A stretch of DNA of 64,000 nt. Source: Bacteroidales bacterium UBA5762 (lineage in GTDB: Bacteria; Bacteroidota; Bacteroidia; Bacteroidales; TTA-H9). Position numbers and translations under genes: made by a program. The stretch spans positions 51,881 to 115,880 of the forward strand of contig DIEY01000072.1 in the NCBI GenBank assembly GCA_002418865.1. Direction: 5' to 3'. The notes below the pieces were generated by a model. It was not told the origin of the DNA. It saw only the letters and a list, made by a program, of their open reading frames with translations, and ran no database searches. This document shows positions 43,141 through 50,133 of this stretch, piece after piece. How positions within the stretch are numbered: position 1 is the stretch's first letter; each line of letters starts with the position of its first letter.

Positions 43141-44310
43141 ATGTCACTAGATTTCAACGATACTTCAATAGCCTATGCTCGAATGAGTGATACAGATTTG
43201 AAAAAAGCCCAGTTTCTCTTTCGGCTCATTTCATCTCCAAAATTGGTAAATGCAGGCAAACAGCTTTTGAATGGACTTTTAAGAATTCATTTCCCTGTTG
43301 ATTGGGCCATCAAACCAACCGTTTATCATCAGTTTGTTGGTGGAGAAGAGCTTGAGCATTGTAGCCAGATTATAAACTTGTTAAGCCAATACAACGTTAA
43401 ATCCATATTAGACTATTCGGTCGAAGCCATCCAAGATGATGATGCCATAAATAAAGTATTAAACGAAACTCTTCGTTCTATTCGTTTTGCTGCAAAAAAT
43501 CCCGATATTCCTTTTGCCGTGTTTAAACCATCGGCTTTCATTCAACCTCAGATTCTCGACAAAATAGAACATCCCGAAACATTATCCCAGGATGAGCATG
43601 CACAGATTGAACAGTTTAAAAACAGAATCGATATACTTTGTCACGAATCGGCTTCACTTGGGCAACCCATCCTCATAGATGCCGAACATACTTGGTATCA
43701 AGGATTAATTGATGAGATTGCGGAAGAAATGATGTTACAATACAATAAAGAACACACTATTGTATATAATACTTTGCAAATGTATCGCATCGACAGAATT
43801 TCATTTCTTCAACAACAAATTCAAAAAGCCCATGAAAACGGATATTTACTTGGGTTAAAGTTTGTGAGGGGGGCTTATATGGAAAAAGAAAGAGACAGAG
43901 CTCGAAAGTATGGTTATGCATCACCTATACACCCTGATAAAGCCTCTACCGATAGAGCCTTTAATGAAGCACTGAAAATCTCCATAGAAAATATGGATGT
44001 GACTTCTATATTTTGTGGCACACATAACGAAGAAAGCTGCCTTTACCTAACACAACTTATGCAGGAAAGAGACATAAATAAGAATAATAACAACATTTGG
44101 TTTTCACAGTTATATGGCATGAGTGACCATATCAGTTTCAATCTTGCCATGAATGGCTATAATGTTGCTAAATACATACCTTATGGTCCTGTTAAAAATG
44201 TAATGCCTTATCTAATTCGTAGAGCTGAAGAAAACACTTCGGTTGCCGGGCAAACAAGCCGTGAGCTTCGACTCCTTCAAAAAGAAATCGAAAGAAGAAA
44301 ACTAAGATAA
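43141..44310 (+). CDS. Monofunctional proline dehydrogenase (PutB/PRODH)
   Basis: LIDAE, YNTLQMYR, KFVRGAYMEKE, GTHN, QLYGMSD, KYIPYGP, PYLIRRAEEN. Confidence 0.93.
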   Translation: MSLDFNDTSIAYARMSDTDLKKAQFLFRLISSPKLVNAGKQLLNGLLRIHFPVDWAIKPTVYHQFVGGEELEHCSQIINLLSQYNVKSILDYSVEAIQDDDAINKVLNETLRSIRFAAKNPDIPFAVFKPSAFIQPQILDKIEHPETLSQDEHAQIEQFKNRIDILCHESASLGQPILIDAEHTWYQGLIDEIAEEMMLQYNKEHTIVYNTLQMYRIDRISFLQQQIQKAHENGYLLGLKFVRGAYMEKERDRARKYGYASPIHPDKASTDRAFNEALKISIENMDVTSIFCGTHNEESCLYLTQLMQERDINKNNNNIWFSQLYGMSDHISFNLAMNGYNVAKYIPYGPVKNVMPYLIRRAEENTSVAGQTSRELRLLQKEIERRKLR

Positions 44311-45199: not shown

Positions 45200-46582
45200 T
45201 CAATGCTCAACCTTTTCGAGTTCAACCGTAAAATGACGCATAATAGGAGCTTCCCATGAAATTCGATATCCATGTTGGATATTCAAACGACGGTCCCAAA
45301 TATTTTTGATTGCAACGGCCACGACGTCCATGTGATTATTAGTGTAAACTCTTCTAGGAATAGCCAATCGAACCGTTTCGAGAGCCGGATAACGGTCCTC
45401 ACGTGTAATAGGATCTCTGTCGGCTAATAAAGTTCCAATTTCTACGGCACGGATTCCGGCTTCAAGGTAGATTTCGATAGCAAGTGTTTGAGCCACATAT
45501 TCTTTACGCGGAACATTAGGCAGAAACTTCAGTGCATCCACAAAAACTGCATGTCCGCCAACAGGTTGTTGTATAGGAATTCCAAAATCGGTGAGTCGTT
45601 TCCCGAGATATTCTACTTGACGTATACGTGTCTCTAAATATTCGAAAGTAGTACTCTCGCGCAGACCTTCTGCCATTGCATTCATATCTCGTCCCGCCAT
45701 GCCTCCATAAGTAATATATCCTTCGAACATGATGTTGAAAGTAGTGGCTTGCCTAAAAATTTCTTCAGAACGAAATCCTATGAATCCACCAATGTTGACA
45801 ATTCCATCTTTTTTACCACTCATAGTAGATAAATCGGCATAAGAATACATTTCGGTAACAATTTCTCGAATCGATTTTTCTTTATATTCTGGCTCACGTA
45901 GTTTGATGAAATAAGCATTTTCTGCAAAACGAGCCGAATCGTAACAAACGGGAATGCCATATTTATTAGCTAAAGCTTTTACTTCACGCAGATTCTGCAT
46001 CGAAACAGGTTGTCCCCCTGAAGTGTTGCAAGTAATAGTCATCAAAATAAAAGGAATATTCTCTTTTGGATTGGATTTTAGCACATCTTCGAGTTTCTGC
46101 AAATCCACATTCCCTTTGAAAGGATGAGAAATACTGGTATCGAAAGCTTCATTTATGCTACAGTCAATAGCTACTGCATGTCGAAACTCAATATGACCTT
46201 TAGTAGTATCGAAAGGCGAATTGCCCGGGATAACGTCACCAGGTTTAACCAGGGCCGAAAATAAAACGTTCTCTGCAGCGCGCCCTTGATGTGTTGGCAG
46301 AAAATATGGGAAACCAAATATTTCATAAATGGCCTGTTTCAGCTTGTAATATGAAGTTGCTCCGGCATAACTTTCATCGCCAAGCATCAGCTCACTCCAC
46401 TGACGGTCACTCATGGCTCCTGTACCAGAATCAGTGATTAAATCAATATACACTTGCTCGCTTTTGAGATTGAATAAATTGTATCTGGCTTGTTTTATCC
46501 ATTCCTCCCTTTGAACCCGCGAGCTCCGATAGATGGGCTCTACCATCTTTATCCGGTAATATTCAGCAAATGGTAATTCCAT
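45200..46582 (-). CDS. tnaA: Tryptophanase (beta-eliminating lyase)
   Basis: IDLITDSGT, PTHQGRAAE, FDTT, SGKKD PLP lysine; C-terminal RHFT has His (tyrosine phenol-lyase has RFFT). Confidence 0.9.
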   Translation of the reverse strand: MELPFAEYYRIKMVEPIYRSSRVQREEWIKQARYNLFNLKSEQVYIDLITDSGTGAMSDRQWSELMLGDESYAGATSYYKLKQAIYEIFGFPYFLPTHQGRAAENVLFSALVKPGDVIPGNSPFDTTKGHIEFRHAVAIDCSINEAFDTSISHPFKGNVDLQKLEDVLKSNPKENIPFILMTITCNTSGGQPVSMQNLREVKALANKYGIPVCYDSARFAENAYFIKLREPEYKEKSIREIVTEMYSYADLSTMSGKKDGIVNIGGFIGFRSEEIFRQATTFNIMFEGYITYGGMAGRDMNAMAEGLRESTTFEYLETRIRQVEYLGKRLTDFGIPIQQPVGGHAVFVDALKFLPNVPRKEYVAQTLAIEIYLEAGIRAVEIGTLLADRDPITREDRYPALETVRLAIPRRVYTNNHMDVVAVAIKNIWDRRLNIQHGYRISWEAPIMRHFTVELEKVEH

Positions 46583-46674
46583 AAAATTAAATTTTAATGA
46601 TGAATTATATTCAATAAGATAGGGATTGAAAATCTATAGAAGTAAGGGGAGGGCAAATTATCTGCCCTAATTAA

Positions 46675-46755
46675 CTAAAGCGAGTAATCGTCGCGGCGCT
46701 TTATATGGCAATATCTGCAAAGTGCTAATAATGAAATCAGCTCAAACCACATCAT
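46675..46755 (-). CDS. Candidate tnaA leader peptide MMWFELISLLALCRYCHIKRRDDYSL (26 aa)
   Basis: Complete ATG..TAG ORF in the tnaA 5' region, one Trp codon, followed by a hairpin; not in the ORF track because of its length. Confidence 0.45.
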   Translation of the reverse strand: MMWFELISLLALCRYCHIKRRDDYSL

Positions 46756-46861
46756 TCAAATTTTCTGTGTAAAATTAAAAGAATTTATATTTTACAGCGC
46801 AAAATTCGAAAAAGAAAATTTTATAACCAACATTCATTTATTTTTCTTATAATTCCCTCTA

Positions 46862-46966: not shown

Positions 46967-48262
46967 ATGCATTCGCGATTTTATAAGATCCTGCCATTTT
47001 TCTTTTTTTTGTTGAGTAGTTTACTATATCCCAATGTCATTTCTGCTCAGTTTGACTCTCTTTTCCTCAATAAGACTCTCCGTTTCGACTATATTCACAT
47101 GGGTGATGCCAATAGTGAATTTTTTGCCATGGATGAATTTCTCGAAGAACCCTATTGGGCAGGCTCACACCTCAACCTAATCGATACCTTAGGTTATGGC
47201 AAATTTCAGTATCGAGTTTATGATCTATCTACTGGTCGTTTGATCTATTCGAGAGGTTATTCTACCTTGTTCTCTGAATGGCAAACTACCCTTGAAGCAC
47301 AAGATGTTTTCAGAGCATTCGAAGAATCCATTGTCATGCCTTTCCCACGTCATGACATCCTCATCGAAATATACAGCTACAATAAAAAGGGGCAATTCGA
47401 AAAAAAAATTTCTTATCCTTTTCGCGTCAACAATTATTTTGTCAATCGAAAGCAGAGAATGGTTTTCCCTGTCATAGAGGTTAGAGAAGTTGCTCCCACA
47501 GAAAAAGCCCTCGATATTGTGATTTTGCCCGAGGGATATACTTCTCAGCAGATGGAAATTTTCAAGCAAGACTGTCAGAAATTTGCGGAAATACTCATAG
47601 GATACGCTCCATACAACGAATACAGCGATAAGATCAACATCAGAGCGGTTTTAGCTCCTTCTCAAGAAGAAGGAAGTGATTTTCCAGCTACCGGTATTTG
47701 GAAAAATACTCTGCTACATTCAAAATTCTATACCTTCGATCTGGATCGTTACTGCATGACCGAAGCCTTTCAAACGGTAAGAGATGTTGCTGCTAATGCC
47801 CCTTACGACCAGATTTATATTCTGGTCAATTCCTCCAGTTACGGCGGTGGTGCAATCTTCAATTATTATGCTCTTTCGGTGAATAGCAACATGTTGGCTG
47901 GAAAAGTCTTTATCCATGAGTTTGGGCATAGTTTTGCCGGATTAGCCGATGAATATTATGATTCTCAGGTGGCTTACAATGAATTTTATCCTTTAGACGT
48001 AGAGCCTCAGGAACCGAATATCACTACTTTAGTAAAGTTCGATAGAAAATGGGCTGATATGGTAGAAGAAGGCGTTCCCATCCCTACCCCAGCCGAAGAA
48101 GATTACAGAAATAAAATTGGAGTTTTCGAAGGAGGTGGCTATGCTGCCAAAGGCATTTATCGCCCAGCCATGGATTGCCTGATGAATACTTTTCATCAGA
48201 ACACCTTTTGCCCGGTTTGCATACGTGCTATCCGACAAATGCTCAATTTTTATACTCAATGA
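46967..48262 (+). CDS. M64 family metallopeptidase (IgA peptidase-like), secreted
   Basis: Signal VISA|Q, KTLRFDY, DIVILPEGYT, HEFGHSFAGLADEY, EGGGY, YRPAMDCLM, FCPVC. Confidence 0.92.
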   Translation: MHSRFYKILPFFFFLLSSLLYPNVISAQFDSLFLNKTLRFDYIHMGDANSEFFAMDEFLEEPYWAGSHLNLIDTLGYGKFQYRVYDLSTGRLIYSRGYSTLFSEWQTTLEAQDVFRAFEESIVMPFPRHDILIEIYSYNKKGQFEKKISYPFRVNNYFVNRKQRMVFPVIEVREVAPTEKALDIVILPEGYTSQQMEIFKQDCQKFAEILIGYAPYNEYSDKINIRAVLAPSQEEGSDFPATGIWKNTLLHSKFYTFDLDRYCMTEAFQTVRDVAANAPYDQIYILVNSSSYGGGAIFNYYALSVNSNMLAGKVFIHEFGHSFAGLADEYYDSQVAYNEFYPLDVEPQEPNITTLVKFDRKWADMVEEGVPIPTPAEEDYRNKIGVFEGGGYAAKGIYRPAMDCLMNTFHQNTFCPVCIRAIRQMLNFYTQ

Positions 48263-48289: not shown

Positions 48290-49192
48290 ATGATTACTCA
48301 TTTAGAACAAATGATCGAAGCTGCAAAGGCTAAAGCCCGTAAAAGAATCGTTGTGGCTTACGCCAACGACATCCATTCCATAGAAGCCGTACACCATACT
48401 ATGGAATTAGGAATTGTAGATGCTACGCTTGTAGGTGACAAAGCTACTATTGTAAAGGTTTGTGAGGATTTGAATATTCAATCCCAGAAATTTCGTATTG
48501 TTCACGAGTCGGATGAGCAAAAAGCAGCTCACAAAGCCGTTGAACTGATCATAAAGGGTGAAGGTGATATTCTGATGAAAGGCCTTGTGAGCTCCGATAA
48601 ATATATGAGAGCCATTCTCAATAAAGATGCAGGTTTATTGCCCCCAAAGGCCATCTTGAGTCATGTAACGGTAATTGAAAACCCAAATTACGACAAACTA
48701 CTAATAGTTGGTGATGTAGCCATTATACCTTCTCCAGACTTAGACCAGAAGATCGCCATCACGAATTACCTGATACAAACCGCTCATCGGCTGGGAAATG
48801 AAAAGCCTAAAGTGGCGATTATTGCCGCAACCGAACAAATGTTACCGAATATGCCCGCATGTGTTGATGCAGCCATCATTTCAAAAATGGGTGAACGCGG
48901 ACAGATTAAAGGAGCCATTATTGACGGCCCTCTTGGACTTGATTCAGCTATCGACAAAGAGAGTGCCACTATAAAAAAAGTAAAGAGTGAAGTGGCCGGT
49001 GATGCCGATTGTCTGCTTTTCCCCAACATCGAAACGGGTAATGTTTTTTATAAATTCAATACTAAACTCGCCAAAGGTGAATTGGGAGCAATCGTTATAG
49101 GAGCCAAATGCCCAGCTATCCTCACCTCAAGAGGCGATAGCGCTCTCTCAAAAACATATTCCATTGCTTTGGCTGCCCTTTCAGCCGACTAA
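48290..49192 (+). CDS. ptb: Phosphate acyl/butyryltransferase, copy 1
   Basis: ILMKG, LSHV, IDGPLGLDSAI, LLFPNIETGNVFYK, LTSRGDS. Confidence 0.9.
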   Translation: MITHLEQMIEAAKAKARKRIVVAYANDIHSIEAVHHTMELGIVDATLVGDKATIVKVCEDLNIQSQKFRIVHESDEQKAAHKAVELIIKGEGDILMKGLVSSDKYMRAILNKDAGLLPPKAILSHVTVIENPNYDKLLIVGDVAIIPSPDLDQKIAITNYLIQTAHRLGNEKPKVAIIAATEQMLPNMPACVDAAIISKMGERGQIKGAIIDGPLGLDSAIDKESATIKKVKSEVAGDADCLLFPNIETGNVFYKFNTKLAKGELGAIVIGAKCPAILTSRGDSALSKTYSIALAALSAD

Positions 49193-49221: not shown

Positions 49222-50133
49222 ATGATCACTAATTTTACACAATTAGTGGATAAAGTAAAAACAGTAACTCCTCAAACCATTGCTGTGGTTGCTGCCGAAG
49301 ATCATGCCACCCTTGGAGCTATTCATCGCGCTATTTCTACGGGTTTCGCAAAGGCTATCCTCTTTGGCAATCAATTAATTATTGAATCTTTGCTTGCTCA
49401 TTATGAAATTCCTGATCATTCCTATACAATTATTCATCAACCCAATGAACAAATAGCGGTAAGTGAAGCCGTTACTATGGTTAATCAAGGTAAAGCTGAT
49501 ATTTTGATGAAAGGCATTATTGGCACTGATATTTTTTTGAAAGCAGTGCTGGATAAAACATCAGGACTATTAAATCAAGGTGAAGTAATGACTTATGTAG
49601 CTGCTATGCAAATACCTACTTATCATAAATTACTCTTCATTTCCGATACGGCGGTCATCCCTTATCCTGACCTCAATCAAAAAGTTGCCATGTTGAAGTA
49701 TTCAGTTGAGATGGCTAAAAGATTTGGCATTTCTAAACCTAAAGTTGCTTTCATTGGAGCCTCTGAAAAAGCTGGGAATCAATCACAAACAGCAATTGAT
49801 GCCAGTATTATAAGCAAAATGGCTCAACGTGGACAACTTGGGGAAGTTATTGTAGATGGCCCACTCGATATTTTTCTGGCTACCCAACCCGAAAGTCTGA
49901 GTATTAAACGAATTAATACCCCCATCGAGGGAGACGCCGATATTTTAATCTTTCCTTCTCTTGAAAGTTGTAATGCCTTTTATAAAGGTTTAGTGAGATT
50001 TGCTGGGGCAGAATTGGCGGGCTTAATACAAGGTACTCGCAAACCTGTAGTTCTGATGTCGAGAAGTGAAAGTGAAAATTCAAAATTTTATTGTCTGGCT
50101 CTCGCATGCCTTATGTCGAATAAAAACCTCTAG
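49222..50133 (+). CDS. ptb: Phosphate acyl/butyryltransferase, copy 2 (divergent)
   Basis: ILMKG, VDGPLDIF, LIFPSLESCNAFYK, LMSRSES. Confidence 0.85.
   Translation: MITNFTQLVDKVKTVTPQTIAVVAAEDHATLGAIHRAISTGFAKAILFGNQLIIESLLAHYEIPDHSYTIIHQPNEQIAVSEAVTMVNQGKADILMKGIIGTDIFLKAVLDKTSGLLNQGEVMTYVAAMQIPTYHKLLFISDTAVIPYPDLNQKVAMLKYSVEMAKRFGISKPKVAFIGASEKAGNQSQTAIDASIISKMAQRGQLGEVIVDGPLDIFLATQPESLSIKRINTPIEGDADILIFPSLESCNAFYKGLVRFAGAELAGLIQGTRKPVVLMSRSESENSKFYCLALACLMSNKNL

Follow-up and report, generated by a model that had tools for sequence, protein, structure and literature searches.

The closest described system to the locus studied here is the leader peptide TnaC of the enterobacterial tnaCAB operon, which is 24 aa long in Escherichia coli and the function of which is defined by the residues Trp12, Asp16 and Pro24 (PMC8429421, PMC10941005). 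By cryo-EM the residues W12, I15 and D16 were found to line the tryptophan pocket, and N14 forms a hydrogen bond with A2058 (PMC8429421). As cited in PMC10941005, the TnaC peptide of Proteus vulgaris is arrested during elongation, unlike the E. coli member of this pair. Metabolite-sensing arrest peptides are rare, and structures exist for only two bacterial amino-acid sensors among them, TnaC and SpeFL (PMC8429421). SpeFL is the ornithine-sensing arrest peptide of speF, and its arrest is proposed to block premature termination (PMC12360218). The same source, a review of Rho-dependent attenuators from 2025, lists E. coli tnaC as the sole tna case (PMC12360218). Our own literature search on leader or arrest peptides of Bacteroidota tryptophanase (tnaA) genes found no description of such a peptide. 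The papers found on Bacteroidota tnaA do not address the mode of induction, and a 2026 paper on tnaA expression in B. thetaiotaomicron mentions neither a promoter nor a leader. The family of leader peptides reported here, which is widespread in front of tnaA in Bacteroidota, is thus apparently undescribed. A second point of comparison is given by translational attenuation. In ermC-type systems a ribosome arrested within a short leader ORF opens a helix by which the downstream initiation region is sequestered, and in macrolide-sensing leaders +x+ elements stall ribosomes when the tunnel is obstructed.

The window, which is the whole stretch of 64,000 nucleotides from Bacteroidales bacterium UBA5762 that was analysed, carries on its minus strand a tnaA gene (45200..46582) encoding a tryptophanase of 460 aa. 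The assignment is based on the NCBIfam model NF053783, which the protein matches with 836 bits (cut-off 750); the tyrosine phenol-lyase model gives 583 and stays below its cut-off of 721. Downstream of tnaA follows a gene for a flavodoxin-like NAD(P)H oxidoreductase, and the divergent gene upstream of tnaA encodes an M64 peptidase (46967-48262). Two tandem paralogous phosphate acetyl/butyryl-transferase (PTA_PTB) genes (48290-49192 and 49222-50133, both on the plus strand) adjoin the peptidase gene, and a proline dehydrogenase-like gene is located at 43141-44310. The PTA_PTB pair, the M64 peptidase gene, tnaA and the proline dehydrogenase-like gene together suggest a peptide- and amino-acid-fermenting lifestyle.

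The intergenic region upstream of tnaA is AT-rich and 384 nt long. It contains on the minus strand an upstream ORF (uORF) of 26 codons plus stop (46675..46755), which, read from 46755 to 46675, translates into MMWFELISLLALCRYCHIKRRDDYSL. The stop codon ends at 46675 and the ATG of tnaA lies at 46582, leaving a spacer of 92 nt. The initial annotation had reported a 26-codon ORF 92 nt above tnaA, and direct translation finds it exactly in this place. A second ATG of the uORF (46752) aligns with the sole start codon of the sister species L002, a member of the same genus with 92% TnaA identity to the window. Three further ORFs of 13-20 codons are found within the same 400 nt. An ATG-started ORF of 26 codons is per se unsurprising in an AT-rich region; what goes beyond chance is its conservation. 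The comparison with other tnaA loci and with metagenome contigs, presented in the following, identifies the uORF as a member of a family.

The tnaA loci for this comparison were taken from two sources. Sixty relatives of the window genome gave 30 loci, and a set with one genome per GTDB species gave 80 named loci, mostly from Bacteroidales and Marinilabiliales and including cultured Ancylomarina, Carboxylicivirga, Marinifilum, Prolixibacter, Saccharicrinis and Parabacteroides. At the 108 usable loci we scanned the 400-450 nt upstream of tnaA for ORFs with the minimal pattern [ILVM]-K-x-R-D. Such an ORF is present in the tnaA-sense strand of 82/108 loci, compared to 0/108 in the opposite strand and 1.4/108 in shuffled sequences. 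Comparing the tnaA leaders across Bacteroidota was the check that the initial annotation had proposed, and its outcome is that the uORF is conserved. The reading as a chance ORF of an AT-rich intergenic region, to which the other short ORFs of the same region might lend some colour, is refuted by these counts and their controls and also by the metagenome scan described below, so that we regard it as practically out of the question.

The encoded peptides, for example MSIFRASVLALVRYRNIKRRDNFVS, MIIKLVLSFLAKNVYRNIKNRDTFHF and MYKNLFLNIKERDSFIL, share a C-terminal core. The invariance of K, R and D in the 82 loci is by selection of the loci, since these residues are fixed by the search motif; beyond the pattern-fixed positions the family signature is [F/Y]-x-N-I-K-x-R-D-x-[F/Y]. 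Counted from the lysine, position -4 is aromatic (F 42, Y 39, H 1; n=82) and never W, position -2 is Asn in 75/82 and position -1 is Ile in 71/82 peptides, and the second aromatic residue stands at position +5 (F 56, Y 22; n=82). In the window the core is Y15-C-H-I-K19-R-R21-D22-D-Y24 (YCHIKRRDDY; 46684..46713, minus strand). It matches the family signature and is atypical in two residues, a Cys at -3 and a His at -2, the latter found in three loci including the window. The initial annotation had pointed to RRDDYSL as the C-terminus; this stretch does overlap the conserved element, but covers only a part of it, as the element extends from Y15 to Y24.

Alignment, codon table and entropy agree that only the C-terminal ~10-12 residues are conserved, while the N-termini are unalignable. 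The N-terminal halves are often hydrophobic, and the peptides are 15 to 64 aa long, mostly 22-27 residues. The uORFs start with ATG (72), GTG (7) or TTG (3) and stop with TAA (45), TAG (19) or TGA (18), and in the 82 loci the distance from the uORF stop to tnaA is 39-234 nt with a median of 73. The end of the uORF also varies and is reached 1-11 residues after the Asp, with a mode of 4. Behind the second aromatic residue there is a tail of 0 residues in 17 loci, 1 in 7, 2 in 35, 3 in 11 and more in 11, and at one locus the stop precedes the second aromatic residue. The sequence of this tail is not conserved.

The uORF product could also be imagined as a trans-acting small protein, such as a membrane- or enzyme-associated micropeptide that goes with tryptophanase and is co-transcribed with it without having a regulatory role. 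The often hydrophobic N-terminal halves would suit such a protein, and selection at the peptide level alone does not separate cis from trans. However, the restriction of conservation to the C-terminal ~10 residues, in peptides of such different lengths and with unalignable N-termini, is a pattern typical of leader peptides acting in the tunnel and not of folded or membrane micropeptides. Because GTG and TTG occur among the start codons and the 3' end of the uORF is base-paired to the tnaA start in many lineages (see below), which likewise speaks against a function in trans, we consider this explanation quite improbable.

At the nucleotide level the core varies freely. All six Arg codons are in use (CGC 34, AGA 18, CGG 11, AGG 9, CGT 7, CGA 3; n=82), i.e. 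CGN in 55 and AGR in 27 loci, and for N, I, K, D, F and Y every synonymous codon is used in roughly even proportions. The entropy per position is ~0 at the constrained codon positions 1 and 2 and amounts to 1-1.8 bits at third positions. The six Arg codons and the variation at third positions indicate selection on the translated product and not on a sequence-specific RNA or DNA site.

A metagenome scan blind to gene context, for which the motif was written as a narrow nucleotide pattern, returned 118 stretches. A tnaA homologue with 62-86% identity begins 32-273 nt past the uORF stop in 74 of these, and five more are typical uORFs that are cut by contig ends. The remaining stretches are redundant copies of a few sequences with in-frame stops or lie inside long ORFs; judged by their lack of uORF features they are chance matches to an A-rich pattern. 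A second gene class preceded by the peptide was not found among the 118 stretches.

The uORF is present on all major branches of the TnaA tree, and at least six losses are forced by well-supported branches. Going by this spread over the whole TnaA tree, the leader family is ancient in Bacteroidota. In total 26 of the 108 tnaA loci are without the uORF; it is absent, for instance, in Porphyromonas gulae, a Rikenella MAG and some Prolixibacteraceae. Divergent leader ORFs outside the motif were seen in L014 and L033 (-171..-91 from tnaA) and in L101 (-146..-69), namely MANLVLIYCIVLVFRKKIRTRNCVKT and MKNINCFKLNADVFLNIKRPDSFPS, the second of which has NIKRPD in place of NIKxRD. These ORFs may belong to the family as degenerate or variant forms.

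A TnaA clade of seven loci (L051, L053, L056, L065, L069, L072, L093; 98% support) lacks the uORF altogether. Its members share a conserved DNA element of ~48 nt, caaacctacgtgaNttttagcaaacagacaagcagttacgaaaaaaa, located ~40-150 nt upstream of tnaA; behind it come a promoter box, TAcCTTTG, and a short 5' UTR. It would seem that tnaA has here passed from control by a leader peptide to control by an operator and a transcription factor. Bacteroidota-type tnaA genes were also found under other labels, with a leader peptide in L031 (MAG labelled Thiohalospira, Pseudomonadota) and L073 (MAG labelled Chlorobiota) and without a leader in L105 (Spirochaetes MAG). The three cases go back either to mis-binning of contigs or to horizontal transfer, in which case the gene of L105 would have moved without its leader.

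Upstream of the uORF in the window a candidate Bacteroidota -7 box, GAATTTTG (46800..46807, minus strand), shows 7/8 matches to TAnnTTTG. This variant box had already been named in the initial annotation and can be read directly from the minus strand; in the same-genus relative L002 it is preserved as GATTTTTG. Its assignment is tentative, because the distance of 44 nt to the uORF ATG is longer than typical. In 59/82 loci a canonical TAnnTTTG precedes the uORF start by ≤150 nt, at a median distance of 20 nt and tightly clustered at 13-35 nt, and only 2/82 loci have it inside the uORF-tnaA spacer. This position upstream of the uORF and only rarely in the spacer indicates that the uORF comes first among the ORFs of the tnaA mRNA. 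Near the 5' end of the window leader, between the candidate -7 box and the uORF, the MFE fold predicts a hairpin GUAAAAU...AUUUUAC (46769..46795, minus strand), the sequence of which is conserved in L002 and which may be a 5'-end stabiliser or a part of the promoter or operator. A scan of the window leader for sigma-70 promoters and terminators found no terminator; the sigma-70 matches are irrelevant to Bacteroidota promoters. An Rfam scan of the intergenic region (E≤10) gave only sub-threshold snoRNA/miRNA noise.

In the search with the TnaC profiles (TIGR02616 / PF08053; E≤10) no match was obtained for six peptides run against Pfam and four run against NCBIfam. E. coli TnaC, used as a positive control, reaches 44.3 bits on TIGR02616 (E 1e-11). 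An alignment of 64 sequences compared with TnaC by hhalign gave no significant result (probability 0.4%, E 0.15), and its placement, equally not significant, puts fl-N-I-K on W-F-N-I-D within residues 12-17 of TnaC. Equivalents of the function-defining residues are absent. At the place of Trp12 the 82 peptides have F or Y (one H) and never W, instead of Asp16 a Lys is found four residues past the aromatic in 82/82 peptides (this K being fixed by the motif), and 0/82 peptides end in Pro as TnaC does with Pro24. By these profile and residue comparisons the Bacteroidota leader peptides are not members of the TnaC family. A PDB profile search with the peptide family returned no related nascent chain, the only hit being a chance match in yeast RNA polymerase I.

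The likeness to TnaC lies in the design. Both are short uORFs which come first on a tryptophanase transcript and are conserved in the C-terminal part that resides in the tunnel, and both are followed by a pyrimidine-rich tract with more C than G after the stop. Both also contain an aromatic-x-N-I element (W-F-N-I-D in TnaC, [F/Y]-x-N-I-K here) with a basic residue two positions further on (K18 in TnaC, R here). In this respect the initial annotation misleads when it speaks of a geometry different from that of TnaC: Y15 of the window stands 11 residues before the last one, the same distance as in the modal family member, compared to 12 residues from Trp12 to Pro24 in TnaC. Unlike TnaC, the Bacteroidota core has an additional R-D and a second aromatic residue, the tail varies in length and UGA is not preferred among the stop codons. 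Many Bacteroidota lineages moreover have a helix masking the tnaA start rather than a Rho site, and the spacer with its median of 73 nt is shorter than the E. coli tnaC-tnaA spacer of roughly 220 nt. SpeFL is comparable as an amino-acid-sensing uORF in front of a gene for a catabolic/decarboxylating enzyme, but there is no sequence similarity, and phylum and ligand are different.

The initial annotation had drawn attention to the WF at positions 3-4 of the window peptide. W3 and F4 are not conserved; a Trp at any position occurs in only 8/82 homologous peptides and has no fixed place, and for this reason W3/F4 was rejected as a Trp sensor. One may therefore think of a cis-acting leader that senses indole, another aromatic compound or the status of translation or elongation, or of a constitutive pause that couples the uORF to tnaA initiation. 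Besides the missing conserved Trp, the K-x-R (+x+) triplet, which the core has in common with the macrolide arrest leaders, would agree with such a leader. The ligand is not readable from the sequence, and helices masking the tnaA start would answer to any ribosome occupancy. On the other hand, in the loci and metagenome stretches compared the motif is essentially confined to the front of tnaA, which points to a tnaA-specific signal, and the aromatic-x-N-I element matches the part of TnaC that touches the bound tryptophan. Substrate induction is, furthermore, the established logic of tna operons (PMC12360218). Weighing these points, we hold a leader responding to something other than tryptophan to be unlikely, with an appreciable chance all the same.

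In a subset of lineages the tail of the uORF, its stop and the next nucleotides are complementary to the 25 nt before the AUG of tnaA. At 16 loci the cognate duplex of tail and tnaA start is within the best 5% of 82 alternative start regions, where ~4 loci are expected. The paired arms differ by lineage (GGGGAUAAC/GUUAUCCC, UGACAGUUUAUU/AAUAAAUUGUCA and AGGUAUUGAUAU/AUAUCAAUACCU), and the helix is present in all ten other members of the family to which the window organism belongs. Counted from the first base of the Asp codon, the 5' arm of the 13 strong cases sets in 0-10 nt downstream and spans tail and stop; a ribosome held near the end of the uORF would sit at this place. From this arrangement we infer an ermC-like translational attenuation which would operate on a start region without Shine-Dalgarno sequence. 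The helix in 13-16 lineages corresponds to that of the translational attenuators ermCL, ermBL and catA86L. Unlike in the Erm and Cat leaders, which regulate resistance genes, the regulated gene tnaA is catabolic, a metabolite is presumed as the ligand, and the masked start region is A/U-rich (85% A+T, 4% G). Bacteroidota mostly do without Shine-Dalgarno-led initiation. For the motif-coding region, pairing with the tnaA start is only weakly enriched (8/82 loci in the best 5%, ~4 expected), and with rank 43 for the window and rank 68 of 82 for L002 this pairing was rejected.

Local structure just 3' of the stop is enriched as well, with a mean z of -1.14 and p≤0.05 in 23/82 loci. Strict intrinsic terminators occur at 5/82 loci (1.2 expected), so few that a canonical intrinsic terminator was rejected as an output stage common to the family. 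The 40 nt directly following the stop are made up of 20.8% C, 11.6% G and 40.9% T in the family, and C exceeds G in 71/82 loci; over the 40 nt that precede the uORF, for comparison, C exceeds G in 43 and G exceeds C in 32 loci. By its composition this pyrimidine tract recalls a Rho-loading site, and a role in termination may be inferred. Marinifilaceae (L032, L037, L039; Ancylomarina, Marinifilum) have an unusually long leader-tnaA spacer of 228-234 nt with several hairpins; their output stage may be more elaborate and might involve transcription attenuation.

The hairpin after the stop in many loci could also be read as part of a trpL-type codon-starvation attenuator, or the whole element as a conserved RNA or DNA site which is open in one frame by chance. 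In contrast to the trpL, pheL and hisL attenuators, the uORF has no regulatory run of Trp or other codons, Trp being confined to the 8/82 peptides mentioned, and strict terminators are rare (5/82 loci). A sequence-specific RNA or DNA site is excluded by the free synonymous variation, including switches between CGN and AGR, and Rfam gave no match. The codon data largely refute this reading, which we consider highly improbable.

In the window itself the output elements are statistically weak and only partly kept in the sister species. The helix between tail and tnaA start is absent in the window (rank 69 of 82) and in the sister species (rank 40). A 19-nt hairpin AGGGCAGA-UAA-UUUGCCCU (46650..46668, minus strand; -10.5 kcal/mol) begins 7 nt past the stop. 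Compared with shuffled sequences it is marginal (p 0.07), it is not kept in L002 (p 0.43), and because there is no U-run it is not a canonical intrinsic terminator. Next to it lies a pyrimidine-rich tract with more C than G, CCCCUUACUUCUAUAGAUUUUCAAUCCCUAUC (CCCCUUACUUCU...; 46615..46649, minus strand), by composition a possible rut-like Rho-loading region. The MFE fold further predicts a long-range helix of 13 bp on the minus strand. Its 5' arm AAAUUU-G-AAUGAUG (46750..46763) contains both start codons of the uORF, and its 3' arm CAUCAUU-A-AAAUUU (46589..46602) ends 6 nt before the tnaA AUG. With -9.6 kcal/mol this helix of uORF start and tnaA start takes the 2nd place of 82 initiation regions tested with the same arm, and the equivalent in L002 (-11.1 kcal/mol) the 6th of 82. 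The fold of the whole window leader has a z-score of -0.93, and the predicted helix is suggestive only. The alternative pairings of the 3' codons proposed in the initial annotation, AAAGCG/CGCUUU and GCGA/UCGC, do appear in the MFE fold, but with z -0.68 they are no better than shuffles, and L002 has not kept them. They were accordingly rejected as a conserved feature.

On the whole, the comparative sequence data make it fairly probable that the product of the uORF is a regulatory leader peptide acting in cis, and that ribosome arrest by the nascent peptide, probably in response to L-tryptophan, relieves a block on tnaA. Points against this reading are the atypical core of the window copy, the weakness of its output elements, the lack of a significant similarity to TnaC, the rarity of strict terminators and the 26/108 tnaA loci that do without the uORF. 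The initial annotation had spoken of an independently evolved attenuator or arrest peptide. A regulatory tnaA leader which is distinct from TnaC and probably works by arrest is indeed strongly supported by the comparative data, whereas the details given there had to be changed as described above.

The comparative data show that the uORF stands first on the tnaA mRNA and that the amino-acid sequence of its last ~10-12 residues is under selection. When the inducer is present, the core in the exit tunnel would stop the ribosome from moving on, close to the uORF's 3' end. The inducer would most plausibly be free L-tryptophan, the substrate of tryptophanase, by analogy with the W12-F13-N14-I15-D16 helix of TnaC. 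The parked ribosome would then relieve the block on tnaA expression. The output stage appears to depend on the lineage: in at least 13-16 lineages the start site would be unmasked, and the window offers the hairpin, the C-over-G tract and the start-region helix. In the window the held lead ribosome together with one or two queued ones might cover the 78-nt uORF and keep the tnaA start open; alternatively, arrest might prevent termination in the spacer. We give start-site unmasking and termination control equal and rather low weight for the window, with nearly as much left for some other output.

The variable distance from core to stop argues against an arrest that takes place strictly at the stop codon. 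If a fixed spacing in the tunnel is needed as in TnaC, the core and the site of arrest would always be the same distance apart. It would then be a termination arrest where the stop directly follows the core and an elongation arrest elsewhere, and the TnaC peptides of E. coli and Proteus vulgaris could serve as a precedent. We can go one step further and regard the family as a second tryptophan-sensing nascent peptide, either independently evolved or diverged beyond recognition. Its core would form a tunnel pocket that converges on the aromatic-x-N-I helix of TnaC, and it would be combined with interchangeable outputs, including the unmasking of a start site without Shine-Dalgarno sequence. For this wider proposal we see a chance just short of even.

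The signature is simple enough for automatic annotation, and it is carried by several cultured strains, among them Marinifilum flexuosum DSM 21950, Prolixibacter bellariivorans ATCC BAA-1284, Carboxylicivirga taeanensis, Ancylomarina salipaludis and Parabacteroides sp. PFB2-10. If the proposed mechanism is true, Bacteroidota genetics would also gain a compact inducible part in this leader. The indole that tryptophanase produces is a major signal between species and towards the host as well as the precursor of the uraemic toxin indoxyl sulfate, and Bacteroidota are principal producers of it in guts and sediments. A second family of tna leaders would, if true, represent a natural experiment on ligand pockets built jointly by a nascent chain and the ribosome. 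It would likewise be a test of translational attenuation in Bacteroidota ribosomes, which initiate without Shine-Dalgarno pairing, and the unmasking of a start site without Shine-Dalgarno sequence would, if true, be a form of translational attenuation that has not been described in Bacteroidota.
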